A stretch of DNA of 64,000 bases from Pseudomonadota bacterium (GTDB taxonomy: Bacteria > Pseudomonadota > Alphaproteobacteria > SHVP01). Position numbers and translations under genes: made by a program. The stretch spans positions 2,420-66,419 of the forward strand of contig JADFIH010000001.1 in assembly GCA_022566715.1 (NCBI GenBank), written 5' to 3'. The notes under the pieces were generated by a model. That model saw only the letters and a list, made by a program, of their open reading frames with translations. It did no database searches and had not been told where the DNA came from. Positions 1,001-21,670 of the stretch are shown here, piece by piece. Every line of letters begins with the position of its first letter. Position 1 is the first letter of the stretch.

Positions 1001-2254
1001 CTAACCTGCCAGCACCGCGCGGGCCGCGGCGCGTCCCGATTGCACGGCTCCCTCGATCGTCGCCGGCAGTCCCGTGTCCGTCCAGTCGCCGGCGAGAAAC
1101 AGGTTTCGCCAGCCCGTCCGGGTGCCGGGCCGGCGCGCGGCCTGTTCGGGGGTCTGCGCAAAGGTGGCGCGGCGTTCCTTGATGATGCGGATCGGGGGTT
1201 GCTCGTTTGCCTCGAGGCCGAGCGCCCGCGCCGTGTCCGCCCAAACCAGCTTGGCGATCTCGCCGGACGGTCTCTCCGCCAGCGCATCGGCGCCGCTGAT
1301 CGTCAGGCTGGCCATGTCGCCGCGCAGAAAGAGCCATTCCGCCGTGCCGCCGATGAGGCCGAGGAAGGTGCCGCCGTCCGGCAGGGACGCCGGCGCGGGC
1401 AATGTGACGTGTGCGTTGACGATGGTGCGGCTTCCCTCGGGAACGGTGAGCTCGGGCACCAGCTCGCGTGCGTTGGCCGGAGGAACGGCGAGCACCAGGT
1501 GATCGCCGGCGCCAAGCTCGATGCGGCCCTGGGCGAACTCCAACGCGCACGCACCGCCTTCGCCGAGTTCGATACCCTTGAGGCCAGAGTTGAAGCGGAC
1601 GGGAACCTGATGATCGGCAAGGAGATCGAGCGCGGGATCGATCAGGCTTGGCGAAAGGCCGTCCCGCGCGACCAGCGGGCGGCATCCCGCGGCGCCCCGG
1701 CCAAAGGTGCGCCACAGCACGGACCAGAGAAGCCGGGCCGATCCTTCTTCCGGCGCGATGTTGAGGGCGGCGACCGCCAGCGGTTTCCAGAAGCGCTCGT
1801 ATAGATCGCCGTTGGCCCCAACCACCGCATGCACCGTTGCGCCGGGCCGGGCGCGGGCAAGCTTCAGACCCGATAGATAATCGCGCGGCCGGGTCCCCGG
1901 GACCCGCCGTTTGGGCGACAGAATCCACCACGGCACGACGCCGCGGTTGGGCCGCAGGGTCCAGCGTTCGCCCGTTCGCAAATCAAGAAAAGAAAAGCCC
2001 GCCGTCTCCGGCCCGGTCAGCGTGCCACGCGCGCCGATGTCGTCGAGATAAGACATCGTGGCCTTGTTTCCGCTGAGCAGCAGGTGGTTGCCGTTGTCGA
2101 TTTGACGCTGGAGTTGCGCGTCGAAGTAGGAGCGGCAACGCCCGCCGGCATGCGCGGCGCTCTCATATAAGACGGCGGCACGCCCCGCCTTGGCGAGGGT
2201 CACGGCGCAGGCAAGCCCGGCAAGGCCGGCGCCGGCAATGTGCGTTACCGCCAA
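1001..2254 (-). CDS. hpnE: hydroxysqualene dehydroxylase (squalene-associated FAD-dependent desaturase)
   Basis: 417 aa. N-terminal FAD-binding GAGLAGL motif with amine-oxidase fold. Lies 4 nt downstream of hpnD, the classic hpnCDE order. Confidence 0.8.
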   Translation of the reverse strand: MAVTHIAGAGLAGLACAVTLAKAGRAAVLYESAAHAGGRCRSYFDAQLQRQIDNGNHLLLSGNKATMSYLDDIGARGTLTGPETAGFSFLDLRTGERWTLRPNRGVVPWWILSPKRRVPGTRPRDYLSGLKLARARPGATVHAVVGANGDLYERFWKPLAVAALNIAPEEGSARLLWSVLWRTFGRGAAGCRPLVARDGLSPSLIDPALDLLADHQVPVRFNSGLKGIELGEGGACALEFAQGRIELGAGDHLVLAVPPANARELVPELTVPEGSRTIVNAHVTLPAPASLPDGGTFLGLIGGTAEWLFLRGDMASLTISGADALAERPSGEIAKLVWADTARALGLEANEQPPIRIIKERRATFAQTPEQAARRPGTRTGWRNLFLAGDWTDTGLPATIEGAVQSGRAAARAVLAG

Positions 2255-2257
2255 GGG

Positions 2258-3127
2258 TCACACAAGCCCGTGGCGCAGGGCGATCCACAATTTTTCCGGA
2301 CGCGAGACACGCACGGGTTGTTTCAAGTTTTCCCAACCGCGCCGTTCGAGCCGTTCGAGAACGCGGTGATAGATCTCGATCATCAGGATGCACGGCTTGA
2401 GCCGCCGCCGGTTACAGCGGGCGATCAACGCGCGGCTTTCATCGAACCGCCGGTGCGCCACCGCCGCGAGGTCCTTGCACACGCTCGGCAACGCCGGATG
2501 GGTCAACACGTCCCGCGGATCGACCGATTCGATGCCGTGCGCCCGCAGCGATTCGCGCGGCAGGTAGAGCCGGTCCATGGCCGCGTCGTCCGTCAAGTCG
2601 CGCAGGATGTTGGTCAGTTGCAAAGCCTCGCCCAGGCAACGGGCGATCTCGGGCGCCTCGGGCTCATCCGCGCCGAAGATGTTGAGGGACAACCGCCCCA
2701 CCGCGCCGGCCACGCGCCGGCAATACGTCTCCAGTTCGGATTGGCTGGGCCCGCGCATGACGCCCCTGAGGTCCATCTCCATGCCGTCGATGACGGCGAG
2801 GAAGGCGTCCCGCGGCAGATCGTGCGCCCGGACCGGCTGCAAAAGCGCGCGGCCGATTGCGGTGCCCGGCTTGCCCGCATAGAGCCGGCCGATCTCCGTC
2901 CGCCACTCCTCCAGCCGCCGCGCCTGATCCTCGCGGTCGCCCGGGTTGTCCACGATATCGTCGACGACCCGGCAAAACCCGTAGACCGCGTACATGGCGT
3001 CGCGGCGGGGCTTGGGCAGGATTCGCATGCTCCAATGGAAGGACGTACCCGATTGGCGCACGAGTTCGCTCGAACGGGCCTGTGGGTCCTTGCGGTCGAG
3101 AACGCCGGCGCCGGTATCTTCAGCCAT
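2258..3127 (-). CDS. hpnD: presqualene diphosphate synthase
   Basis: Squalene/phytoene synthase fold (YAVYGFCRVVDDIVD). Probable start MAEDTG at 3127, 2 nt after the hpnC stop. The ORF-track start at 3202 would overlap hpnC. Confidence 0.8.
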   Translation of the reverse strand: MAEDTGAGVLDRKDPQARSSELVRQSGTSFHWSMRILPKPRRDAMYAVYGFCRVVDDIVDNPGDREDQARRLEEWRTEIGRLYAGKPGTAIGRALLQPVRAHDLPRDAFLAVIDGMEMDLRGVMRGPSQSELETYCRRVAGAVGRLSLNIFGADEPEAPEIARCLGEALQLTNILRDLTDDAAMDRLYLPRESLRAHGIESVDPRDVLTHPALPSVCKDLAAVAHRRFDESRALIARCNRRRLKPCILMIEIYHRVLERLERRGWENLKQPVRVSRPEKLWIALRHGLV

Positions 3128-4073
3128 GCGGTCCCCCGGCGGGCGCGTTTTTATGGGCGTCGCCGCGCCGGCGCCCGGGCAAGGCCCGCCAGCCCAACGC
3201 ACCGAGCGCGCCCACTAACGCGGTCCCCGCAAACGCGAGTTTCGAATGGCGAACCGGTTCCGCAAGGGGATCGTCCTTGCGCAGCCGCCGCGACAGGCTT
3301 TCCGCTAGACGGAGGATCGCCGCCGACTCCATGGCCAGGCGGTGGCTTTCCAGCAACCTTGGCAAAGGCCGCGCCGCAACGAGGAGGTCGTCCACGCCGT
3401 CCAGGCACTTGTCGAAGACCCGGCGCAAGGCGGGGTCGAGCCGCGGTTCGTCGAGCGCCGTCACGTCGAGGCCCTCCGCACCGAGCCAGTCGAGCGGCAC
3501 ATACACGCGGTCGAGGCCGCGGTAGTCGGCTTGCGCATCCTGTAGGTGGTTGATCACCTGGAGCGCCGTGCAAAGCGCGTCGGACGCCGCGTAATCCTTC
3601 CGCGATTCGCCGTGAAGGTCGAGCAGATAGCGCCCGACGGGATTGGCCGAATATTCGCAGTAGGCGAGAAGGCCGGACCAGTCATCGTAGCGCCGCTTGA
3701 CCGCGTCCTGTTTGAAGGCGGTGAGAATATCGACGCAGTGTTTATCCGTCAGGCCGGTCGCGGCGAGACTTTCGCGCATCAGGTGGGCTTTTTTGAGGTC
3801 GGGCGAGTCCCGGTCCCGGCCGGTCACGGCCGCCTCAACCCGGTCGAGGCGCGCGAGCTTATCCGGCGCCGAACGGTTCGGGTCGTCGGCGATGTCGTCG
3901 GCGGCGCGGGCGAAGGCATAGAAGGCCGCGACGTGGGGCCGCAGCCGCGCCGCGATCAGGCGCGAGCCCACGGGAAAGTTTTCGTCGCCCGCACGCTTTG
4001 CCGCGACTTTTACCGCTTTCGTTGCCGATGGCGTCTCGATGTCCGCGGCCCGCGTCATCGTTGCTCCCCACAA
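3120..4073 (-). CDS. hpnC: hydroxysqualene synthase (squalene synthase family)
   Basis: 317 aa with ENFPVGSRL and AFYAFARAADDIADD squalene-synthase motifs and a hydrophobic C-terminal tail. First gene of the hpnCDE array. Confidence 0.8.
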   Translation of the reverse strand: MWGATMTRAADIETPSATKAVKVAAKRAGDENFPVGSRLIAARLRPHVAAFYAFARAADDIADDPNRSAPDKLARLDRVEAAVTGRDRDSPDLKKAHLMRESLAATGLTDKHCVDILTAFKQDAVKRRYDDWSGLLAYCEYSANPVGRYLLDLHGESRKDYAASDALCTALQVINHLQDAQADYRGLDRVYVPLDWLGAEGLDVTALDEPRLDPALRRVFDKCLDGVDDLLVAARPLPRLLESHRLAMESAAILRLAESLSRRLRKDDPLAEPVRHSKLAFAGTALVGALGALGWRALPGRRRGDAHKNAPAGGPHG

Positions 4074-4076
4074 ATA

Positions 4077-5003
4077 CTAGACCGGACCGGCACGCTCGGT
4101 GATGATGCCGTAGTGCTCCGGCCGGCGGTGTTGCGCGAAATCGAACATCGCCTTCTTGTTGTACTGCGCGAGGTCGAGGTCGCAGACGTGGCTGATGAGC
4201 TCGTCGTCCTTGGTCGCCGTCAGCGCCACGATCTCGCCCGACGGCGCAATGATGCACGTTCCGGCCAGCAGATTGCAGCCCTCCTCCATCCCGGCCTTGG
4301 CGACGCCCACCACCCAGGTGCTGTTCTGGTAGGCGCCCGACTGCATCGACAGGTGATTGTGAAACCCGGTGAGGTCGTCGTAGATGGGCTCCCACGGGAT
4401 ATGGGTCGGCGTGTTGTAGCCCAGCATCACGAGCTCGACGCCCTTGAGGCCCATCACGCGATAGGTCTCGGGCCAGCGCCGGTCGTTGCAGATACACATG
4501 CCCATCTTGCCGCCGAAGGCATCCCAAACACCGAAGCCGAGATCGCCGACCTCAAAGAAATACTTTTCGAGGTGTTGGAAGGGCCATTCCGGGCGGTGAT
4601 CGGCGTGGCCCGGCAAGTGAATCTTGCGGTACTTGCCGACGATGGCGCCCGATTTATCGACCAGGATCGAAGTGTTATAGCGATGGGTCTTGCCGCCCTC
4701 GTCCGCGAGCTCGCCGTACCCAAAAGAAAACCCGATCTCTAACCGCTTCGCTTCATCGAACAGCGGCTGCACGGCGGGACCCGGCATTTCGCGCTCGAAG
4801 AAGGACTCGATCTCGGCCGGGTCCTCCATCCACCAGCGCGGAAAGAAGGTGGTGAGCGTGAGTTCGGGAAAGACCACGAGGTCGCATCCGCGGCCGTGGG
4901 CCTGGCGTAAAAGTTCGAGCAGGCGGCTCACGACGACCTGCCTTGATTCGTTGCGCGCGATCGGTCCCATTTGCGCGGCCCCGACGGTGACGTTTCTTGC
5001 CAT
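4077..5003 (-). CDS. N-carbamoyl-D-amino-acid hydrolase (nitrilase superfamily)
   Basis: 308 aa, aligns closely along its full length with Agrobacterium D-carbamoylase (FPELTLTTFFPRW, KIHLPGH, MCICNDRRWPE with catalytic Cys). Confidence 0.75.
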   Translation of the reverse strand: MARNVTVGAAQMGPIARNESRQVVVSRLLELLRQAHGRGCDLVVFPELTLTTFFPRWWMEDPAEIESFFEREMPGPAVQPLFDEAKRLEIGFSFGYGELADEGGKTHRYNTSILVDKSGAIVGKYRKIHLPGHADHRPEWPFQHLEKYFFEVGDLGFGVWDAFGGKMGMCICNDRRWPETYRVMGLKGVELVMLGYNTPTHIPWEPIYDDLTGFHNHLSMQSGAYQNSTWVVGVAKAGMEEGCNLLAGTCIIAPSGEIVALTATKDDELISHVCDLDLAQYNKKAMFDFAQHRRPEHYGIITERAGPV

Positions 5004-10712: not shown

Positions 10713-10865
10713 GCCGTGCCCAATTTATCTTTCGAAGTCCTCACCCTGAGCCTGTCGCCCTGCCGGAGCAAAGCCGCTCCGGCTAAAACTTTGGGGGCGA
10801 GGACAGGTGGCAAACCCTCATACTTCGACAGGCTCAGCATGAGGGCATAGCATTGTCTCAGGCGT
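10713..10865. repeat. alphaproteobacterial REP-like palindromic intergenic repeats (LSLSK-type)
   Basis: Contains CCTCACCCTGAGCCTGTCG and its partner CCCTCATACTTCGACAGGCTCAGCATGAGGG. Near-identical units recur at 15960-16110. Generates the spurious LMLSLSKYEG ORF. Confidence 0.6.
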
Positions 10866-12023
10866 CTACTGCGCGGCCTGGGCTTCCTCCTCGCCGAGGT
10901 GGCGCGTCGCCGGGAAGACCTCATCCCGCAGGTAGTCGAGGGTACGCGTTACGTGCTCGTCGAGAACGTTGCCGATCTTGATGCTGAGCCCGATGCGCGC
11001 GTTGCCGAGTTCCTTGTGCACGGTGTGAATTTGCTCGATCGCCATGTCGGGCGTGCCGCAGATCATTAGGCCGCACTCCATCTTTTCCTCGAAGGACAAG
11101 CCGCCCATGCGCATGTTGACGAATTTTTTCGCCTGTTCCTTCGCCGTCTTCTGGTCCTGGTAGTAGCGCGTCTTCTGCACCACGAGCTTTTGCGCCGTGC
11201 GGATACCACCGCCGAGCACACCAAAGAAATATTCCTGTCCGCTCTTTAGAATCTTGATGGCCTCGTCCTTGGTAGGCGCGATGCAGCAGTTCAAGCCAAC
11301 CGTGAAGTCGAGCGGCCCGGGTTCCCAGCCATATTCCCGGGCGAAGGTGCGATACCGTTCCATGCTGCGGCGCCCATCGTCCATGTCCGAGAGGGCAAGA
11401 AGGCCGGCGATGGCCCGGTGCTTGGCCGCCAGCTTGGCCGATTGTTCGCTCGCCGCGGACATGAGAATCGGCGGGAGGGGCTGCTGCACCGGCTTGGGCC
11501 AGATGGAGACGGCGCGGAACTGATAGTGCTCGCCTTCCCAGCCGAAGGGCTCCGTTTCGGTCCAGCATTTCTTGATCAGTTCCACCGCCTCGTTCATGCG
11601 ACTGTAGGATTCGCTGGGCGGTTCGTTGTAGGCGATATATTCGTGCGGGATGCCGCGCATGAACCCGGCGATCAACCGGCCGCCGCTGAGCACGTCGATC
11701 ATGGCGTACTCTTCCGCGACGCGGATCGGGTTCGCGATCGGCAGGATATTGCCCGACTGCAAGATGCCCGCCTTGGTTGTCTGGTGCGCGAGGACCGCTC
11801 CCACGAGATTCGGGTTGGGCATAAGGCCATAGGGGCTCATGTGATGCTCGTTGCAGCCGATCCAGTCGAAGCCGGCCTGCTCCGCGTAGATCTTGTCCTT
11901 GATGTAGGCCTTGAACATCTTCACGCCCTTTTGCGGGTCGAACTGTTTGTTCGGCACCGGCCAGTCCTGACCCGCCCGGTCGATATCGGTGTAGGGCATG
12001 TGGTGGGTATAGGAATAACGCAC
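10866..12023 (-). CDS. LLM-class (luciferase-like) flavin-dependent monooxygenase, paralog 1
   Basis: 385 aa with a bacterial-luciferase fold (GCNEHHMSPYG, NPxL, GRL). Shows DKCMO-like features. Confidence 0.75.
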   Translation of the reverse strand: MRYSYTHHMPYTDIDRAGQDWPVPNKQFDPQKGVKMFKAYIKDKIYAEQAGFDWIGCNEHHMSPYGLMPNPNLVGAVLAHQTTKAGILQSGNILPIANPIRVAEEYAMIDVLSGGRLIAGFMRGIPHEYIAYNEPPSESYSRMNEAVELIKKCWTETEPFGWEGEHYQFRAVSIWPKPVQQPLPPILMSAASEQSAKLAAKHRAIAGLLALSDMDDGRRSMERYRTFAREYGWEPGPLDFTVGLNCCIAPTKDEAIKILKSGQEYFFGVLGGGIRTAQKLVVQKTRYYQDQKTAKEQAKKFVNMRMGGLSFEEKMECGLMICGTPDMAIEQIHTVHKELGNARIGLSIKIGNVLDEHVTRTLDYLRDEVFPATRHLGEEEAQAAQ

Positions 12024-12034
12024 GGTCTTTCCCC

Positions 12035-12844
12035 CTATGCAGTCGCCGCCGCCGCGTCGAGGCCGGCCGCTTCATCGCCCCAGTTCACCAAGAAGCCTTC
12101 GGCCCGGGTCAGGAAGTCGCGAACCAAAAGCGAAACCCGCTCCGGCTGGTCGATCTCCATGACGTGGGCCGCGTCATAGACGTAGACCAAGAAGGAGCGC
12201 GGGATGAGGCTCTTGAGCAGGCGCGGGCTCTCCTCGGGGATGGCGCCGTCCTCGGTGCCGTGGAGGATCAGGGTCAGGGTCTCGATCTCGCCCAGCCGCG
12301 CGACGAGCGCCTTGTCCATGGGCGATGCATCGTGATAGTGGCCCATGGCCTTACGGTTGTGCGCCACCGTCTCCTCGGGCTTGCCGTCCTCCGGAATCTT
12401 TTCCGGGTGGGCGTACATCTGCTTGACGAATTCCGCGGGATCGCTGGCCAGACCGACGGCGCCGTCCGGCCTGAATCCGGCCGGCCCCTCCAAAACCATC
12501 TGGCCAATCTTGCCGCCATGCAGGACGGCGAGCCACGCCGCGGTCCAGCCGCCAAAGGAGTAGCCGATGACGTCGCACGGACCGCCGATCACCGTGTCGA
12601 TGAATTCGCCGGCGAGATCCGCCAGCCCTTGCATCGAATCGACGCCGTCGAGAAACGGCGTGCCGTCGAACCCGGGCGTCACCGGCATGAAAATTTTAAA
12701 GGATTCGGCCCAGTCGTTGATCGGCTTGCTGGCGAGCCGCACGCCGCCACCGCTGTGCAGATAGAGGACCGGCGGTCCGTCGCCGCCGACAAAATATTTG
12801 ACGGCCCCGGCCGATAGTTTGGCTTCTTTTTCCTGAAAGGTCAT
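12035..12844 (-). CDS. alpha/beta-fold hydrolase
   Basis: 269 aa. HSGGG oxyanion region, GYSFGG nucleophile elbow, and a C-terminal His. Confidence 0.75.
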   Translation of the reverse strand: MTFQEKEAKLSAGAVKYFVGGDGPPVLYLHSGGGVRLASKPINDWAESFKIFMPVTPGFDGTPFLDGVDSMQGLADLAGEFIDTVIGGPCDVIGYSFGGWTAAWLAVLHGGKIGQMVLEGPAGFRPDGAVGLASDPAEFVKQMYAHPEKIPEDGKPEETVAHNRKAMGHYHDASPMDKALVARLGEIETLTLILHGTEDGAIPEESPRLLKSLIPRSFLVYVYDAAHVMEIDQPERVSLLVRDFLTRAEGFLVNWGDEAAGLDAAAATA

Positions 12845-12874
12845 TGCAACACCTGTTTCACGAGGAGGATGTTC

Positions 12875-13993
12875 TCACAAATCGCGTACGTGAGGCAGCA
12901 CCTGGTCTTTGAACAGGTCCATGCCCTTATAGATTGTTTCATCGGGTATGTTGCCCACTTTCATGTTGATGTTCGTCACGCCATGGCCCATGGCCGCGTG
13001 CACGTGCTTGAGCTGGTCGACCACCATCTTGGGCGTTCCACAGAGGATGGTGCCCTGATCGAGCAGGTCGTCCACCGAAATTTGAGCGGATTTGCGCGCA
13101 TCGACGAACTTGCCTTTCATCTCGTCGCCGTAATAACGGGTCTTTTGCAGCACCAATTTCTGCGCCGTGCGAAGCCCGCCACCCAATACCTCGGCGAAGA
13201 ACCGCCGGCCGTTGGTGAGAGTTTCCTTGGCCTCGTCGGCGTCTTCCGCGAGCGAAAGCGTCAAGCTGACGAGAACGTCTTCCGGTTTCGGATCGAATCC
13301 GTGTGCCTTGGCCGACTCTCGATAGATGTCGATCAGATTCCGCGCGTCATCGAACGTTTTCAATTGCGCGATGCCGAACATCGCACCGAATCGACCGGCG
13401 ATCTCCGCCGAGCGTGGCGAACTGCCCGACATGATGATCCGCGGGTGCGGTTGTTGGATGGGGCGCGGCCATATCGAGACGGCCCGGTATTGGTAGTACT
13501 CGCCTTCCCAGCCGAAGGGCTCTGGCTCGGTCCAGGCCTTTATGATGAGCTGCGTCGCCTCGATCAGGCGGCCATAGGACTCGCTCGGCGCCATGTTGTA
13601 GGCAACGTACTCGTGCGGAATGCCGCGGAACATGCCCGCAACGAGCCGGCCACCGCTCAGCACGTCGAGCATGGCGTACTCCTCCGCGACACGCAGCGGG
13701 TTCAGCAATGGGATCAGGTTGCCGACCATGGCGATCTTGATGCGCGTGGTGCGCTGGATCAGCGAAGCCCCGATGAGGTTCGGGTTCGACATCATGCCGA
13801 ACGGGCTCATGTGGTGTTCGTTGCAGCCCACCCAATCGAAGCCGCACTCCTCCGCATACACCATATTGTCGAGGTAGGCGTTGTAGAGCTTCTCGCCCGT
13901 TCGCGGATCGAACCGTTTGTTGGGCACCGGCCAGTCCTGAGTGTGCTCCGGACTCTCCGTGTACGGCATCAAATGAAAGTACGCGAACTTCAT
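12875..13993 (-). CDS. LLM-class (luciferase-like) flavin-dependent monooxygenase, paralog 2
   Basis: Roughly 55-60% identical to the 10866-12023 product. Probable start MKFAYFHLMPYT at 13993. Confidence 0.75.
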   Translation of the reverse strand: MKFAYFHLMPYTESPEHTQDWPVPNKRFDPRTGEKLYNAYLDNMVYAEECGFDWVGCNEHHMSPFGMMSNPNLIGASLIQRTTRIKIAMVGNLIPLLNPLRVAEEYAMLDVLSGGRLVAGMFRGIPHEYVAYNMAPSESYGRLIEATQLIIKAWTEPEPFGWEGEYYQYRAVSIWPRPIQQPHPRIIMSGSSPRSAEIAGRFGAMFGIAQLKTFDDARNLIDIYRESAKAHGFDPKPEDVLVSLTLSLAEDADEAKETLTNGRRFFAEVLGGGLRTAQKLVLQKTRYYGDEMKGKFVDARKSAQISVDDLLDQGTILCGTPKMVVDQLKHVHAAMGHGVTNINMKVGNIPDETIYKGMDLFKDQVLPHVRDL

Positions 13994-14215
13994 GCCCCCC
14001 CCCCAACGCCCGGCCTCGCCGCACGCGCCCTGCGGGCTCATTCAGCGTTACAGCAAAGCGTTTGGCGATTCCACGCCCTGGGGCTAAGAGTCCACAGTTC
14101 GGACAATCCATCGAGAGCGACGGTTTGATGACGGCGAGCGAGGGTTTAAGATCGGGCCGGGCTCGCGGGGGCGAGTGATCGGTGACGACCTAGCCGGCCA
14201 CGAGGGAGAGCAGGG

Positions 14216-15022
14216 GTGGCGAAGTTCCAACAGGAAATGATTTCGGTCGCGGGGTGCCGAGTGAGCGTGTTCCGCGGTGGCGCGGGTGAGCCCCTTCTGC
14301 ACCTGCACGGCGCGGGCGTTGTCCGCAGCGTTATGCCGTTCATGGAATTTCTGGCCGAGACCTTCGACGTGATCATCCCGCAGCATCCGGGCTTCGGCGA
14401 CTCGGACGAACCCGATTGGCTGGAGGGGATGGGGGACCTGGCCTATTTCTATCTCGAATTCATGGAGCAACTGGATCTGCGCGGCGTTCATCTCGGCGGA
14501 ACGAGCCTGGGCGGCTGGCTCGCCATGGAGGTCGCCCTGCGCAACACCGAACGCCTGAAAACGCTCACGCTGGTCGGCGCCGGCGGCATCCATGTCGAGG
14601 GAGTCGAGCGCGGCAAATCACGCGAATGGGGACCGCAGGAGACCATGCGCCAAGTGATCTACAACCAGGTGCTGGCCGAGAAGATGATCGCCACGATGCC
14701 GGCGAACCCGGAACAGGACCCGGTTCACCAGAAAAACCGGCGCACCATCGGCAAGCTTGTCAAGCCGCCGACCTACAATCCCGATATCCAGAAGTGGGCG
14801 CACATCGTGAAGATTCCGGTTCACATCATTTGGGGAGATCACGACCGCCTGCTGCCGATGGCGTTCGCGCCCGAATACGCGAAGCTGTTCGACGACGCCA
14901 CGCTCGACATCATGAAAGAGTGCGGCCACATTCCCTACATGGAGAAGCCGCGCGAGTATGCGGACGTGATCACCCGGTTCATCCAAAAGGCCACGCAGAC
15001 GGAGAACGCCGGCGCCAGGTAA
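14216..15022 (+). CDS. alpha/beta-fold hydrolase
   Basis: 268 aa. HLHGAG, GTSLGG nucleophile elbow, catalytic His near C-terminus (ECGHIP). Confidence 0.75.
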   Translation: MAKFQQEMISVAGCRVSVFRGGAGEPLLHLHGAGVVRSVMPFMEFLAETFDVIIPQHPGFGDSDEPDWLEGMGDLAYFYLEFMEQLDLRGVHLGGTSLGGWLAMEVALRNTERLKTLTLVGAGGIHVEGVERGKSREWGPQETMRQVIYNQVLAEKMIATMPANPEQDPVHQKNRRTIGKLVKPPTYNPDIQKWAHIVKIPVHIIWGDHDRLLPMAFAPEYAKLFDDATLDIMKECGHIPYMEKPREYADVITRFIQKATQTENAGAR

Positions 15023-15108
15023 GGCGCACCGGCGTCCCGCCCGCCAATACGGCGAGGGGAAGAGTTCTGAAACCGCAAACCCTGGGCGATGTCACGGTTT
15101 CGAAACTG

Positions 15109-15936
15109 GTGGAATTCGAAACCCCGTTCATCGGGCGGCAATACGCCCTCCCCGAGTCCACGCGCGAGGTTTTCGACGCCCACCGGGATTGGCTCGCGCC
15201 GCATTTCTTCGATTACTCGGCCGATCTCCTGATCTTCAGCTTCCATACCTTTATCCTGAAGACGCCGCATCACACGATCCTTGTCGATACCTGCGTCGGC
15301 AACCACAAGGAGCGGCCGCTCGAGCACTGGCATATGCGCGACGGGCCCTATCTCGAAGACATGCGCGCGGCCGGCGTGGCGCCCGAATCGGTCGACTATG
15401 TCATGTGCACGCATCTGCACGCCGATCACACCGGCTGGAACACCCGGCTTCGGGATGGCCGTTGGGTCCCCACGTTTCCCAACGCCAAGTATTTGTTTTC
15501 AAAAGACGATTGGAACTTCTTCCAAGACCTGAAAGAGGGCGATCCCGGCTATGCCGCCCTGCGGGACAGTGTCCTGCCGATCATGGAGGCGGGACAGGCG
15601 CAACTCGTGGACAAGGACTTTCAGTTCGACGACGCGGTCCGCGTGGAGCCGACGCCGGGGCACACGCCCGGCCATTACGCCGTCCATCTGTCCTCGAAAG
15701 GCCGGGAGGGCGTTCTGTCCGGCGATCTCATCCATAGTCCGGTGCAGATCAACCGGCCGGACTGGTCGAGCAAGTTCTGCAACGACCCCGACCGGTCCCG
15801 CGAGACGCGCATCGAGTTCGTCGACCGATACGCCGATACGGACGTCATGCTTTTCGCCGCGCACTTCGGCGGGCCGACGGCGGGGCACATTCGCGCGGAC
15901 GGCGATGCCTGCAAGTTTCAGGTCGTCGAGGGCTAG
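15109..15936 (+). CDS. MBL-fold metallo-hydrolase (AHL-lactonase-like)
   Basis: HLHADHTGW (HxHxDH) zinc motif plus downstream His/Asp ligands. No in-frame ATG between the upstream stop (15022) and the motif, so start is uncertain. GTG at 15109 is the first canonical start; an alternative lies near 15064. Confidence 0.6.
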   Translation: MEFETPFIGRQYALPESTREVFDAHRDWLAPHFFDYSADLLIFSFHTFILKTPHHTILVDTCVGNHKERPLEHWHMRDGPYLEDMRAAGVAPESVDYVMCTHLHADHTGWNTRLRDGRWVPTFPNAKYLFSKDDWNFFQDLKEGDPGYAALRDSVLPIMEAGQAQLVDKDFQFDDAVRVEPTPGHTPGHYAVHLSSKGREGVLSGDLIHSPVQINRPDWSSKFCNDPDRSRETRIEFVDRYADTDVMLFAAHFGGPTAGHIRADGDACKFQVVEG

Positions 15937-16120
15937 GCCGAGCCGTTGTTTTTGAGCCGGTGAACTCGTCCTTCGACAGGCTCAAGACGAGGCCTCATGC
16001 TGAGCTTGTCGAAGTATGGGGGAGTTCCCTCTAGGAGGTTCTCCGCCTGAGCACGTTGATGGCCTCATGCTGAGCTTGTCGAAGTATGAGGGGGGAATAA
16101 AGGCGCCGTCGTTACCGGTT
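15937..16120. repeat. REP-like palindromic repeats (two units, LSLSK-type)
   Basis: GGCCTCATGCTGAGCTTGTCGAAGTATG(G/A)GGGG occurs twice. It is the reverse complement of the unit at 10820-10850. Confidence 0.6.
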
Positions 16121-16612
16121 TCATTTTGGTTTTCGGCGAAACGGCGTCCTTCGAAGCGCCGTTTTACGCTTCAGCGGCGTCTTGCGTTTTAACGCCGTTT
16201 TTTGGACCAATGTTCGACGCGTCGGAGCTTTGCGGACTTTTCCGGTCGCTTGAGATTTGGAAACGCCGGTCTCGACCGGTCCGGGCTCAGTTTCAAGGCT
16301 GTGGCCAAGCGCAACGTTCGAGGTCCCGGCGGCCTCACCCGTGGCGACGTAAAGCGCGGCCTTTGAAGCCGTAACGGCGGGCAGCATGACGATAATTTCT
16401 CCCGCGCTATTGCGTGAAGGTTCAGGGATATCCTCACGGTTTGCCATGCGCGCGGCAATCGCCTCTTCAAGGCAATCGGCGGCGCGCGCGATCGCCTCCG
16501 CCACATCGGCGCCTTCGGTAAGCGCCTCCGGCAAATCGGGGAAACTCACGATCATGGTGCCGGACGGCGATTCCTCGAGGTCCGCGGGAAAGGCAAAGGT
16601 CGGGTTCGCCAT
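16121..16612 (-). CDS. HicB-family antitoxin-like protein with Lys/Arg-rich C-terminal tail
   Basis: N-terminal region (MIVSFPDLPEALTEGADVAEAIARAADCLEEAIAARM, then EDIPEPS) fits the HicB/UPF0150 fold. C-terminal 40 aa are KRKT/ALRRT repeats, histone-H1-like. No adjacent HicA. Confidence 0.45.
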   Translation of the reverse strand: MANPTFAFPADLEESPSGTMIVSFPDLPEALTEGADVAEAIARAADCLEEAIAARMANREDIPEPSRNSAGEIIVMLPAVTASKAALYVATGEAAGTSNVALGHSLETEPGPVETGVSKSQATGKVRKAPTRRTLVQKTALKRKTPLKRKTALRRTPFRRKPK

Positions 16613-16759
16613 CGTCAGTCCTCGGAATTTGGCGGGATCTGCTCGCAGTTGCTTAGGAAGTCTGGTCACAAATGCGGGCGAATACAGCCTACACAGAGGC
16701 CGGGTAAAATGTCCGAAAGTAAAGTGCTAAATCGGGCAAATGTGTCCGAACGGATTCCC

Positions 16760-20027: not shown

Positions 20028-20260
20028 TTCGGGCCACGGGTGGCGGAAATCTTGGGTTTAGCGCCGCCTTCCGTCCTCCCAATCTCCACGGAGGCAACAG
20101 ACCAGCCTCCACGAACCTTATCCATATTGACAAACTATCGAGAGAAGTCCGCAATGCATTGAAAGTAAAAGAGTTATGTTGTATATATTGCAAATCTATT
20201 ATTAGAGATTTTGTAAAATTTGTAAAGTTCGAGGGCGCGACCGTGGCGGATAAGAAAGCG
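20028..20260. promoter_or_regulatory. divergent aceBA / regulator promoter region with AT-rich TTTG(C/T)AAA operator-like motifs
   Basis: A roughly 100-bp AT-rich tract in a 65% GC genome. Contains TTGCAAA, TTTGTAAAA, TTTGTAAAG and the imperfect palindrome CAAATCTATTATTAGAGATTTTG. These resemble RamB/ScfR-type boxes. Confidence 0.5.
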
Positions 20261-21670
20261 ATGCTTGGCCATAAAATCCGCCGCTTTCGGCAGGATCTGG
20301 GCCTGAACCAATCGGAACTGGCCGAACAGCTCGAGATATCGCCAAGCTATCTCAACCTGATCGAGCACAACCAGCGCCCGGTCACCGTGCCGCTGCTGTT
20401 CCGGCTCAGTCAGTCCTTCGATATCGACCTGCGCGAGTTCGCGGAGGATGAGGAGGCGCGTCACGCGGTGGGCCTGGCGGAGGTGTTCGGCGACCCCCTG
20501 TTCGAGGGGCAGGCGCCGGGCCAGCAGGACATCCGCGCGGTGGCGGCGGCCAGCCCCGCGGCCGCCCGCTCGGTGATTACGCTTTACAACGCCTATCGGT
20601 CGATCCGCGAGGACGCCCAGGCGCTGGCCCACCAACTGGCCGACGACGACGCACTCCAAGCGCTCGGTCAGCGCGGCCAGCCCTTGCAAGAGGTCCGCGA
20701 TTATCAGGAATCGCGCTCCAACCATTTCCCGGAACTCGAGACGGCGGCGGAAGAACTTCGCGGCGGATCGCAGGACGACCTCTATCAAGGCTTGGTGGAC
20801 CATTTGCGGCAAGTCCACGGCCTCGGCGTCAAGATCATGCCCGTCGACGTGCTCCAGGACACGATACGGCGTCACGACCAGCACCGCCGGCGCGTACTGC
20901 TGTCGGAGATCCTGCCGCCCTCGGGCCGCATCTTCCATCTGGCGGCGCAGATCGCGCTTCTGGACCACAGCGACATGCTGGACCGCATCGGCGAGGGTGC
21001 CGATTTCACCAGCGACGATGCCCGCAAGCTGATGCGGGCCGGCCTGTCCAATTACTTCGCGGCGGCCGTGATGATGCCCTACGATGCGTTCCTGACGGCG
21101 GCCCGTGAGCTTCGCTTCGACATCGACATCCTGTGCCGCCGCTTTGGCGCCAGTTTCGAGCAGGTCGCCCACCGGCTGACGACCCTTCAGCGTCCCGCCG
21201 CCCGTGGCATCCCGTTCTTTTTCCTGCGCGTCGATGCCGCCGGCAATGTGTCCAAGCGGCTGTCCGGAGGCGGCTTTCAGTTCGCGCGCTTCGGCGGCGC
21301 CTGCCCGCGCTGGATCGTACACCACGTCTTTCGCAGCCCCGGCGCCATTCGGACGCAGGTGGTCCAGCTGCCTGACGGCGGCGCGTTCTTCACCCTCGCC
21401 CGAACCGTCGATCCCATCGCCGGATGGAGCCAAGGCCCGGGCCCGCAATATGCGATCGGGCTGGGCTGCGATATCAAGGACGCGGGCAAGCTCGTCTATG
21501 CCGACGGCGTGGACCTCAAGAACTTGGACGCGGCAACGCCGATCGGTGTGAGCTGCCGTCTTTGCGAACGCCTGGACTGTAGCCAGCGCGCCTATCCGCC
21601 CATCAACCACCGCCTGAGCATCGAAGATCATATCCGGCGGCTGACGCCCTTTACCTTCGCGCAATCGTAG
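20261..21670 (+). CDS. ScfR/RamB-family transcriptional regulator (XRE HTH, ImmA/IrrE-like metallopeptidase-like and DUF2083 domains)
   Basis: N-terminal XRE HTH (LGHKIRRFRQDLGLNQSELAEQLEISPSYLNLIEHNQR). Long C-terminal region typical of short-chain acyl-CoA regulators. Divergent from aceBA. The ORF-track start at 20159 lies in the AT-rich promoter, so ATG 20261 is used (or GTG 20243). Confidence 0.75.
   Translation: MLGHKIRRFRQDLGLNQSELAEQLEISPSYLNLIEHNQRPVTVPLLFRLSQSFDIDLREFAEDEEARHAVGLAEVFGDPLFEGQAPGQQDIRAVAAASPAAARSVITLYNAYRSIREDAQALAHQLADDDALQALGQRGQPLQEVRDYQESRSNHFPELETAAEELRGGSQDDLYQGLVDHLRQVHGLGVKIMPVDVLQDTIRRHDQHRRRVLLSEILPPSGRIFHLAAQIALLDHSDMLDRIGEGADFTSDDARKLMRAGLSNYFAAAVMMPYDAFLTAARELRFDIDILCRRFGASFEQVAHRLTTLQRPAARGIPFFFLRVDAAGNVSKRLSGGGFQFARFGGACPRWIVHHVFRSPGAIRTQVVQLPDGGAFFTLARTVDPIAGWSQGPGPQYAIGLGCDIKDAGKLVYADGVDLKNLDAATPIGVSCRLCERLDCSQRAYPPINHRLSIEDHIRRLTPFTFAQS

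Follow-up and report, generated by a model that had tools for sequence, protein, structure and literature searches.

Recurrent linkage of luciferase-like monooxygenases with serine hydrolases in a four-gene alphaproteobacterial module, a possible Baeyer-Villiger-type cassette

Five neighbouring enzyme genes are present in a 64,000-nucleotide stretch of the contig JADFIH010000001.1 (the window), which comes from a Pseudomonadota bacterium of the alphaproteobacterial lineage SHVP01. They encode two luciferase-like monooxygenases (LLM1 and LLM2), two alpha/beta-hydrolases (ABH1 and ABH2) and one hydrolase of the metallo-beta-lactamase (MBL) fold. An initial annotation had read them as two LLM/ABH pairs plus a lactonase-like MBL enzyme, bracketed by repetitive extragenic palindromic (REP) elements and forming one accessory module for Baeyer-Villiger oxidation and lactone hydrolysis. 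The open reading frame (ORF) list of the window and the Pfam matches agree with that annotation on the five genes, their coordinates and their folds (Table 1), and regulator and transporter genes are indeed both absent among the ORFs inside the block. The proposed pairing, however, does not describe the gene order: LLM2, ABH1 and LLM1 follow one another as a minus-strand operon, with gaps of 30 and 11 nt, opposite the divergently oriented ABH2 and MBL. As described below, the functional unit consists of four genes, the LLM2-ABH1-LLM1 operon and the divergent ABH2, which share one promoter region containing a GTCC-N7-GGAC palindrome.

The linkage of LLM and ABH genes recurs in many genomes. We surveyed 83 loci by tblastn with the window proteins, and the neighbouring ORFs of 82 loci were clustered all against all. 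Linkage was counted over 99 non-identical LLM genes. In 55 cases an ABH gene lies no more than 200 nt away on the same strand. One further LLM gene has an ABH gene within 400 nt, nine are separated from theirs by another LLM gene, and twelve share a locus with an ABH gene that lies beyond a transporter. In total, an ABH-type hydrolase, nearly always of the ABH1 type, is linked in some way to 76 of the 99 LLM genes; 22 lack an ABH, including five situated at contig ends. The unbiased clustering of neighbours likewise returned the ABH1-type hydrolase as the top real partner (62 of 82 loci). In a neighbour-joining tree the monooxygenases form two deep clades, the LLM1 type and the LLM2 type, each of them paired with ABH1-type hydrolases. 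Most loci hold a single LLM with its ABH, and adjacent LLM paralogs occur in several lineages. The view that LLM and alpha/beta-hydrolase form a linked functional unit is therefore well founded. Our literature search found no characterised cassette of this composition, nor anything specific to it.

The linked loci belong to Alphaproteobacteria, Binatia, Burkholderiales and Gammaproteobacteria, with uncultured Alphaproteobacteria and Binatia providing most of them. The family is almost confined to metagenome-assembled genomes (MAGs), which represent freshwater, deep-sea and sponge-associated Alphaproteobacteria, Defluviicoccus, Stellaceae and Binatia; Neorhizobium is the sole cultured genus in which it was found. 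Some single MAGs carry at least three separate loci of the LLM subfamily (L006, L070 and L077; L010, L037 and L075; L008, L035 and L078; L066, L072 and L073, where L numbers designate loci of the survey). Such paralog expansion within MAGs recalls the FMNO expansions reported for SAR202.

The whole four-gene arrangement, ABH2 divergent from LLM2-ABH1-LLM1, is found again in locus L009 of a different alphaproteobacterial MAG, at 67-78% identity and between unrelated flanks (an RND efflux system and OsmC on one side, a thiamine pyrophosphate enzyme and a short-chain dehydrogenase/reductase, SDR, on the other). The MBL gene does not share this linkage; it is present in none of the 83 LLM loci. 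The LLM2 orthologues are 93% identical to the window protein in L088, 85% in L085 and 78% in L009. ABH2 keeps its divergent position in L088 and in L009 (67% identity there), and ABH2-like genes also adjoin LLMs in L001, L078 and L087. The palindrome GTCCACAGTTCGGAC lies in the ABH2/LLM2 spacer of the window, and GTCC-N7-GGAC recurs in the corresponding spacers of L088 (2604-2618) and L009 (7823-7837). The L009 spacer cannot be aligned with that of the window outside this palindrome. Across 1.6 Mb of loci the motif occurs at a background rate of 0.025 per kb. We consider it a candidate operator, on the basis of this conservation, for a regulator encoded outside the module. An alternative, longer LLM2 ORF would extend to 14041 within the same spacer; however, the start at 13993 is favoured because the L088 homologue is 372 aa long. 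A functional link to the adjacent IOR genes was considered and rejected: they are oriented convergently to the operon, and IOR is absent beside the L009 module.

Table 1. Coordinates of the enzyme genes and intergenic features in the window
Feature	Position	Strand	Description	Pfam match
LLM1	10866-12023	-	Paralogous luciferase-like flavin monooxygenase, predicted; last operon gene	PF00296 2e-50
ABH1	12035-12844	-	Alpha/beta-fold serine hydrolase, conserved LLM partner	Abhydrolase_1/6
LLM2	12875-13993	-	Luciferase-like class C flavin monooxygenase, predicted; first operon gene	PF00296 3.9e-51
ABH2	14216-15022	+	Second alpha/beta-fold serine hydrolase, divergent from LLM operon	Abhydrolase_1 4.5e-21
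MBL	15067-15936	+	MBL-fold lactonase-like hydrolase, backbone neighbour	Lactamase_B 5e-20
GTCCACAGTTCGGAC palindrome, GTCC-N7-GGAC	14090-14104	none	ABH2/LLM2 divergent promoter region; candidate operator	
Left REP hairpin	10713-10865	none	Convergent IORb/LLM1 spacer	
Right REP array, three units	15937-16120	none	Convergent MBL/p182 spacer	

The MBL gene has a different history. In three more distantly related loci, L089 (70% MBL identity), L090 and L091 (64%), it directly adjoins malate synthase, without any LLM or ABH, in a neighbourhood of malate synthase, isochorismatase, epimerase, HldE and response regulator genes that is the downstream backbone of the window. Since it sits by malate synthase without LLM or ABH there, and is absent from the LLM loci, its membership in the module is rejected, and the proposed five-gene catabolic unit with it. 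Synteny identifies the MBL gene as an older chromosomal neighbour from the malate synthase region. Because ABH2 and MBL have the same orientation, with 44 nt between them in the window (12 nt in L088), recruitment or co-transcription of MBL in this particular lineage may nevertheless be conceivable.

As to the protein itself, the description of MBL as lactonase-like was correct. It carries the HLHADH metal motif (HxHxDH type), and its nearest entries in the PDB are 4XUK, LrsL (7Y7U, 9.6e-21), AncDHCH1 (3.8e-20), MPH and AidC (4ZO2, 8.5e-14), so that, judged from these matches, the nearest solved relatives include the AHL lactonase LrsL and the dihydrocoumarin-hydrolase/MPH clade. The motif and the best PDB matches are shared with lactonases of the LrsL/AidB/MPH type; in contrast to these, the window protein scores below every lactonase cut-off in NCBIfam (AidB, YtnP, AttM and AiiA; for example 77.9 against 360 for AidB and 60.6 against 425 for YtnP) and is syntenic with the malate synthase backbone. 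The end of the gene at 15936 agrees with the earlier coordinates, but the start near 15109 does not. Its homologues are 289 aa long and begin with MKPQTLGD, and the codon aligned to their ATG start is CTG at 15067 in the window, preceded by the Shine-Dalgarno-like run GAGGGGAAGAG. The first canonical start, GTG at 15109, would drop 14 residues. Three explanations are possible for the CTG: it may serve as a non-canonical start, it may reflect a recent loss of the start codon, or it may be a sequencing error.

The REP elements are real, and they occur on both flanks of the block as initially described. With up to two mismatches, the core CTGAGCYTGTCGAAG is matched four times in the 64 kb where 0.19 matches would be expected, each time within one of the two spacers listed in Table 1, with the left arms at 10737-10757 and 10815-10848 and the right units at 15965-15992, 15991-16022 and 16059-16092. 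Both spacers can form long hairpins (z = -3.05 on the left and -3.45 on the right), and both lie between convergent gene ends, which is the usual location of REPs. However, relatives hold the same block without them. L085 has the order hpnCD - CN_hydrolase - acyl-CoA ligase - IORab - LLM1<ABH1<LLM2 (identities of 85% for IORa, 74% for IORb, 90% for LLM1, 86% for ABH1 and 85% for LLM2), and its IORb/LLM1 spacer consists of 13 nt without a REP; L086 has a REP pair in this same spacer. L088, with the order LLM1<ABH1<LLM2 / ABH2>MBL> followed by isocitrate lyase, has neither a REP nor the small ORF p182 described below, and its MBL lies 68 nt from isocitrate lyase. Moreover, the GC content at third codon positions (GC3) is 0.80-0.84 in the five genes and 0.80-0.86 in the flanks, and no integrase or transposase is found among the block ORFs. 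As the block is REP-free in relatives and its GC3 matches that of the flanks, the REPs are variable intergenic elements and not island boundaries, and the repeat-bounded accessory island has to be abandoned. At these convergent gene ends they represent either terminator hairpins or insertions acquired secondarily between the genes.

These observations bear directly on the reading in which the five genes form a REP-bounded island whose diketocamphane-monooxygenase-type enzymes make lactones that ABH1, ABH2 and MBL would open. That REPs are found on the two sides of the block and nowhere else, that MBL is lactonase-like, and that it lies close to ABH2 in the same orientation all fit such a model. 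It is nevertheless improbable, being already largely refuted by the synteny of MBL, by the REP-free blocks at the same site in L085 and L088 and by the native GC3; in addition, the diketocamphane enzyme is a remote match to the LLMs, as shown below. For annotation, the outcome is a four-gene module separated from coincidental neighbours, namely the MBL gene and the REPs.

Next to the right REP array, before isocitrate lyase, lies p182, an ORF of 182 aa (16121-16669, minus strand). It is the sole gene here with a deviating GC3 (0.62 against approximately 0.82 in its neighbours), and its N-terminus is weakly similar to the HicB antitoxin (E 9e-4, below the cut-off). The REP array and p182 together are probably the only truly variable insertion at this site.

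LLM1 and LLM2 both match the Pfam family Bac_luciferase (Table 1). They are 51% identical in amino acid sequence, with 76-78% DNA identity over stretches of 276 and 174 nt, and are anciently diverged paralogs, in agreement with the earlier view that they are paralogous. The closest solved homologue is RslO1 (7BIP), which is the best PDB match of LLM2 (6.8e-36) and matches the two LLMs with phmmer E-values of 1e-27 to 1e-36. A family profile built from 28 sequences ranks RslO1 first (3.8e-45), followed by Enhygromyxa LuxA (8CBB, 7e-34), Vibrio harveyi LuxA (2e-25), PuwE, Atu2307 and LuxB. Far lower comes 3,6-diketocamphane 1,6-monooxygenase (3,6-DKCMO), which matches the profile with an E-value of 7e-11 over the N-terminal third only, and SsuD and the F420 enzymes rank lower still. 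The single LLM sequences rank the solved structures in the same manner; their phmmer E-values against 3,6-DKCMO are 3e-4 and 9e-5, without a significant stretch. The AlphaFold model of LLM1 (pLDDT 83.5) gives a similar picture in Foldseek: RslO1 (E 2e-22, TM-score approximately 0.73-0.85), E. salina LuxA and 2I7G come first, and 3,6-DKCMO (rank 8, E 9e-18, TM-score approximately 0.7) and LuxA follow later. Together with PF00296, these matches support a luciferase-like TIM-barrel fold.

With 3,6-DKCMO as the diketocamphane enzyme compared, RslO1, LuxA, PuwE and Atu2307 are thus much closer in sequence, and the specific resemblance to diketocamphane monooxygenases that had been suggested is not supported (E of approximately 1e-4, against 1e-27 to 1e-36 for RslO1). 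The same applies to the EHH, NPxL and GRL blocks that were taken as its signature. The residues N58, E59, H60 and H61 are invariant across the 28 sequences and align with the LEHH of LuxA (His44/His45). Since the three motifs align to the surroundings of His44/His45 in LuxA and equally to RslO1, they belong to the LuxA-like branch as a whole and do not single out diketocamphane enzymes. All 24-27 LLM models of NCBIfam score the two proteins below their own cut-offs, the best being TIGR03619 (100.9 against a cut-off of 166.9) and TIGR03858 (95.5 against 462); TIGR03860, of the RutA/NtaA type, reaches 35-42 bits, far under the LuxA-type models. By profile and by predicted fold, the LLMs fall into the FMN-type LuxA/RslO1/DKCMO structural neighbourhood. 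Placement in an F420 or an alkanesulfonate/nitrilotriacetate clade, which the initial annotation had named as an outcome that would overturn it, was checked in both kinds of search, and the LLMs lie outside both clades.

Two alternative views of the monooxygenases can be weighed at this point. First, the top NCBIfam match of LLM1 is TIGR03619 (F420_Rv2161c, 100.9 bits), as would be expected if the LLMs were F420-dependent oxidoreductases that do not use O2. However, this score lies under the cut-off of the model, FMN enzymes rank far higher in the profile and fold searches, and an FMN reductase gene adjoins the LLM-ABH pair of Neorhizobium, which makes this the least probable of the alternatives. 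Second, both LuxA and LuxB are among the best PDB matches, and several lineages have adjacent LLM paralogs, so that LLM1 and LLM2 might be the catalytic and structural subunits of a LuxAB-like heterodimeric aldehyde monooxygenase, with ABH1 as a LuxD-like acyl-transferase or thioesterase. We regard this as very unlikely: both paralogs retain every invariant active-site position, most loci hold one LLM with its ABH, and RslO1 and E. salina LuxA, which head the list of homologues, form homodimers (PMC8093152, bioRxiv 10.1101/2023.02.27.530324). Furthermore, no LuxC- or LuxE-like genes were noted, and ABH1 has no LuxD-type acyltransferase match in the Pfam scan. We predict instead that LLM1 and LLM2 are LuxA-like two-component class C flavin monooxygenases that would depend on FMNH2.

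Both hydrolases match the Pfam families Abhydrolase_1/6. In ABH1 the nucleophile elbow is GYSFGG, and an alignment of 16 homologues shows no variation at Ser96, Asp199 and His227, whose conservation is 95% or more among 68 sequences; in ABH2 the nucleophile motif GTSLGG and the corresponding Asp and His are conserved. By these residues ABH1 and ABH2 are Ser-Asp-His hydrolases, and the nearest curated models of the ABH1 family are lactonases and esterases such as PcaD. Alpha/beta-fold epoxide hydrolases are defined by an Asp nucleophile in the nucleophile elbow. A combination of epoxidase and epoxide hydrolase is therefore rejected, because both elbows carry Ser and not Asp. Carbon-carbon hydrolases of the meta-cleavage product type have a GNSMGG elbow and a Trp after the catalytic His. 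Judged by the window residues, this type is unlikely as well, since the elbows are GYSFGG and GTSLGG and no Trp follows the catalytic His.

The gene contexts of the cassette in other genomes provide further clues. In Neorhizobium petrolearium (NZ_CP123001, GntR-flanked cluster at 93146-98607) the order is ABH2-like - LLM / GntR / FMN reductase - LLM (52%) - ABH1-like, with SDR, alcohol dehydrogenase and aldehyde dehydrogenase genes near the cluster. The FMN reductase gene (PF03358, 92.5 bits) shares its strand with the LLM-ABH pair and is located immediately upstream, a position that supports the FMNH2 dependence of the monooxygenases. Reductases of this FMN_red type were found in Neorhizobium alone among all loci and none in the window, in a search that did not extend to the HpaC/Fre types. 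L087, L001 and L009 likewise have SDR or alcohol dehydrogenase genes close to the cassette, in keeping with a priming step from alcohol to ketone. Locus L001 has a set of LLM-ABH-ABH genes (76% identity to LLM1) in a 10.5-kb segment between two inverted copies of an insertion sequence (1647-3100 and 13595-15048; 1.45 kb, 99.7% identical, with a 448-aa DDE transposase). With further insertion sequences around it, this arrangement resembles a composite transposon; the cassette is thus mobile elsewhere.

Genes of ABC transporters are linked to the cassette in approximately 37 of 82 loci, mostly of the Fbp/PhnS2-like kind and in one case of the NMT1/SsuA type, and a pair of CN-hydrolases is linked to it in 25 loci, with a LysR regulator in those examined in detail. 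A seven-gene operon, LLM - CN_hydrolase x2 - ABC ATPase - fused permease - substrate-binding protein (SBP) - ABH, occurs in Binatia (L004/L021), in Rhodospirillaceae (L092), where a LysR gene precedes it, and in approximately 18 more loci. The operons of the Binatia and Rhodospirillaceae MAGs are near-identical. Because the same order of seven genes is seen in MAGs of different phyla, horizontal transfer or binning problems are suggested. Other arrangements include LysR-ABH-LLM-Fer2 followed by one unassigned gene and an NMT1-type SBP and ABC transporter (L093), and hydantoinase, amidase and Amdase neighbours (L003). The window has no orthologue of the cassette-linked ABC transporters and CN-hydrolases; its ATPase at 27.5 kb is generic, and its CN_hydrolase (4077-5003) is distant. 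The combination of SBP-dependent uptake with amidases suggests that the substrates in the importer and amidase lineages are polar, perhaps nitrogen-containing, and not camphor-like terpenoids.

This leads to the main alternative, possible though less probable than the mechanism that we prefer (below): a polar compound, which may contain nitrogen, would be processed by a hydrolase-first or Rut-like pathway. In the hydrolase-first variant, the serine hydrolase (with amidases in other genomes) would deacylate an imported substrate, and the LLM would then hydroxylate or cleave the product. In the Rut-like variant, the LLM, like RutA, would direct its peroxyflavin at the carbonyl of an amide or lactam, leaving a ring-opened product for the hydrolases. 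In the Rut pathway an LLM (RutA) also acts together with an amidohydrolase and an alpha/beta-hydrolase (RutD), and by analogy the gene sets described here may be comparable. The seven-gene operon with LysR, conserved in Binatia and Rhodospirillaceae, the L093 arrangement with its NMT1-type SBP and transporter and the neighbours in L003 all point in this direction, and import through an SBP argues for hydrophilic substrates. On the other hand, the window module has neither amidase nor transporter, the RutA/NtaA-type model TIGR03860 scores far below the LuxA-type models, and the ABH1 family lies nearest to lactonases and esterases.

The most likely mechanism in our view, to which we give somewhat less than an even chance, is Baeyer-Villiger insertion by the LLM followed by hydrolysis by its partner serine hydrolase. 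FMNH2 would be supplied by a reductase encoded elsewhere. The C4a-peroxyflavin of the LLM would then attack a carbonyl of the substrate, and a Baeyer-Villiger-type oxygen insertion would give an ester or lactone, which the partner serine hydrolase would split into acid and alcohol. The two LLM/hydrolase sets may serve two related substrates or two successive carbonyls. This mechanism is supported by the nearest FMN enzymes (RslO1, LuxA, Atu2307 and 3,6-DKCMO), which attack carbonyls or transfer oxygen. It was also reported that the LLM EGO55_13860 converts progesterone to testosterone acetate by Baeyer-Villiger oxidation (PMC12239570), and a scheme of FMNO/Baeyer-Villiger monooxygenase (type II BVMO) plus esterase has been proposed for SAR202 (PMC5395668).

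Several observations weigh against this explanation as a whole. No sequence feature separates Baeyer-Villiger LLMs from hydroxylating or epoxidising ones, RslO1 as the closest solved homologue is described as epoxide-forming (PMC11354265), and the similarity of the LLMs to 3,6-DKCMO is weak. The importers and CN-hydrolase pairs counted above suggest that the substrates are polar and may contain nitrogen, and that the logic is perhaps hydrolase-first or Rut-like. There is no flavin reductase of the one type searched for near the window module. Finally, the tight co-orientation of ABH2 and MBL may mean that the latter was recruited in this lineage after all.

Among known systems, RslO1 of rishirilide biosynthesis in Streptomyces bottropensis is the best match in both sequence and fold, a TIM-barrel LLM of the homodimeric FMN type (PMC8093152). 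It differs from the window proteins in its low identity (approximately 23%), in its location in a polyketide biosynthetic cluster and not beside an alpha/beta-hydrolase, and in its reported chemistry of epoxide formation (PMC11354265). The LuxA proteins (V. harveyi 1BRL/3FGC and the homodimeric E. salina 8CBB) have the EHH, GL..NP and PxR.AE...LD..S.GR blocks in common with the LLMs, and their chemistry is an attack of FMNH2-peroxide on a carbonyl; the identity, however, is approximately 19-22%, and the LLMs have no lux operon context and nothing suggesting light emission. The type II BVMO 3,6-DKCMO (4UWM/5AEC), an FMN-dependent two-component LLM, belongs to the same structural neighbourhood, but its sequence relationship is marginal and its context is the cam plasmid. 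The same logic of a monooxygenase tightly linked to a serine hydrolase is seen in BVMO-esterase operons, for example those of a type I BVMO and an esterase for methyl ketones. The classical examples use type I BVMOs that depend on FAD and NADPH. Unlike the window LLMs, EGO55_13860 in C. tardaugens has no dedicated esterase gene adjacent to it. The window module, a two-component flavin monooxygenase with an esterase-type hydrolase, is of a kind already known, of which it is an uncharacterised member.

Few enzyme families of uncultured aquatic bacteria are as expanded and as poorly understood as the LLMs, which were proposed, without biochemical support, to be type II Baeyer-Villiger enzymes acting on recalcitrant organic matter (PMC5395668). 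One LLM subfamily is now tied repeatedly to a serine hydrolase that is catalytically intact by its residues, and often to an ABC importer, which turns it into a testable two-enzyme unit. The binding proteins of the importers, such as those encoded at 9923-10969 in L092, at 8926-9981 in L073 and, for the NMT1 type, at 11207-12292 in L093, could be screened for ligands, so that the question of the substrate becomes testable too. Neorhizobium petrolearium and N. galegae offer cultured entry points, with a homologous pair preceded by an FMN reductase gene and a GntR gene adjacent. We tentatively propose that the LLM/ABH1 pair may represent an undescribed, widespread family of monooxygenase-esterase cassettes with type II Baeyer-Villiger (or Rut-like, carbonyl-attacking) enzymes, expanded to at least three copies in genomes of uncultured Alphaproteobacteria and Binatia from freshwater, deep-sea and sponge habitats, often with ABC importers. 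Such cassettes might provide a dedicated oxidation route for polar, carbonyl-bearing dissolved organic matter, a possibility that we hold with reservation.

The surroundings of the module contain further recognizable gene groups. A hopanoid/squalene-type trio lies at 1001-4073 on the minus strand of the window and consists of an HpnE-like, amine-oxidase-like gene and two SQS_PSY genes (HpnD/HpnC-like). A CN_hydrolase and then an acyl-CoA ligase come next, and L085 has the same order with inserted hydantoinase A/B genes. On the other side of the module, the segment 16825-21670 holds an isocitrate lyase and malate synthase operon on the minus strand and a divergent XRE-M78-ScfR gene (a RamB-like short-chain fatty acyl-CoA regulator) at 20159-21670. 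In L089-L091 the malate synthase gene is present and the isocitrate lyase gene is absent.

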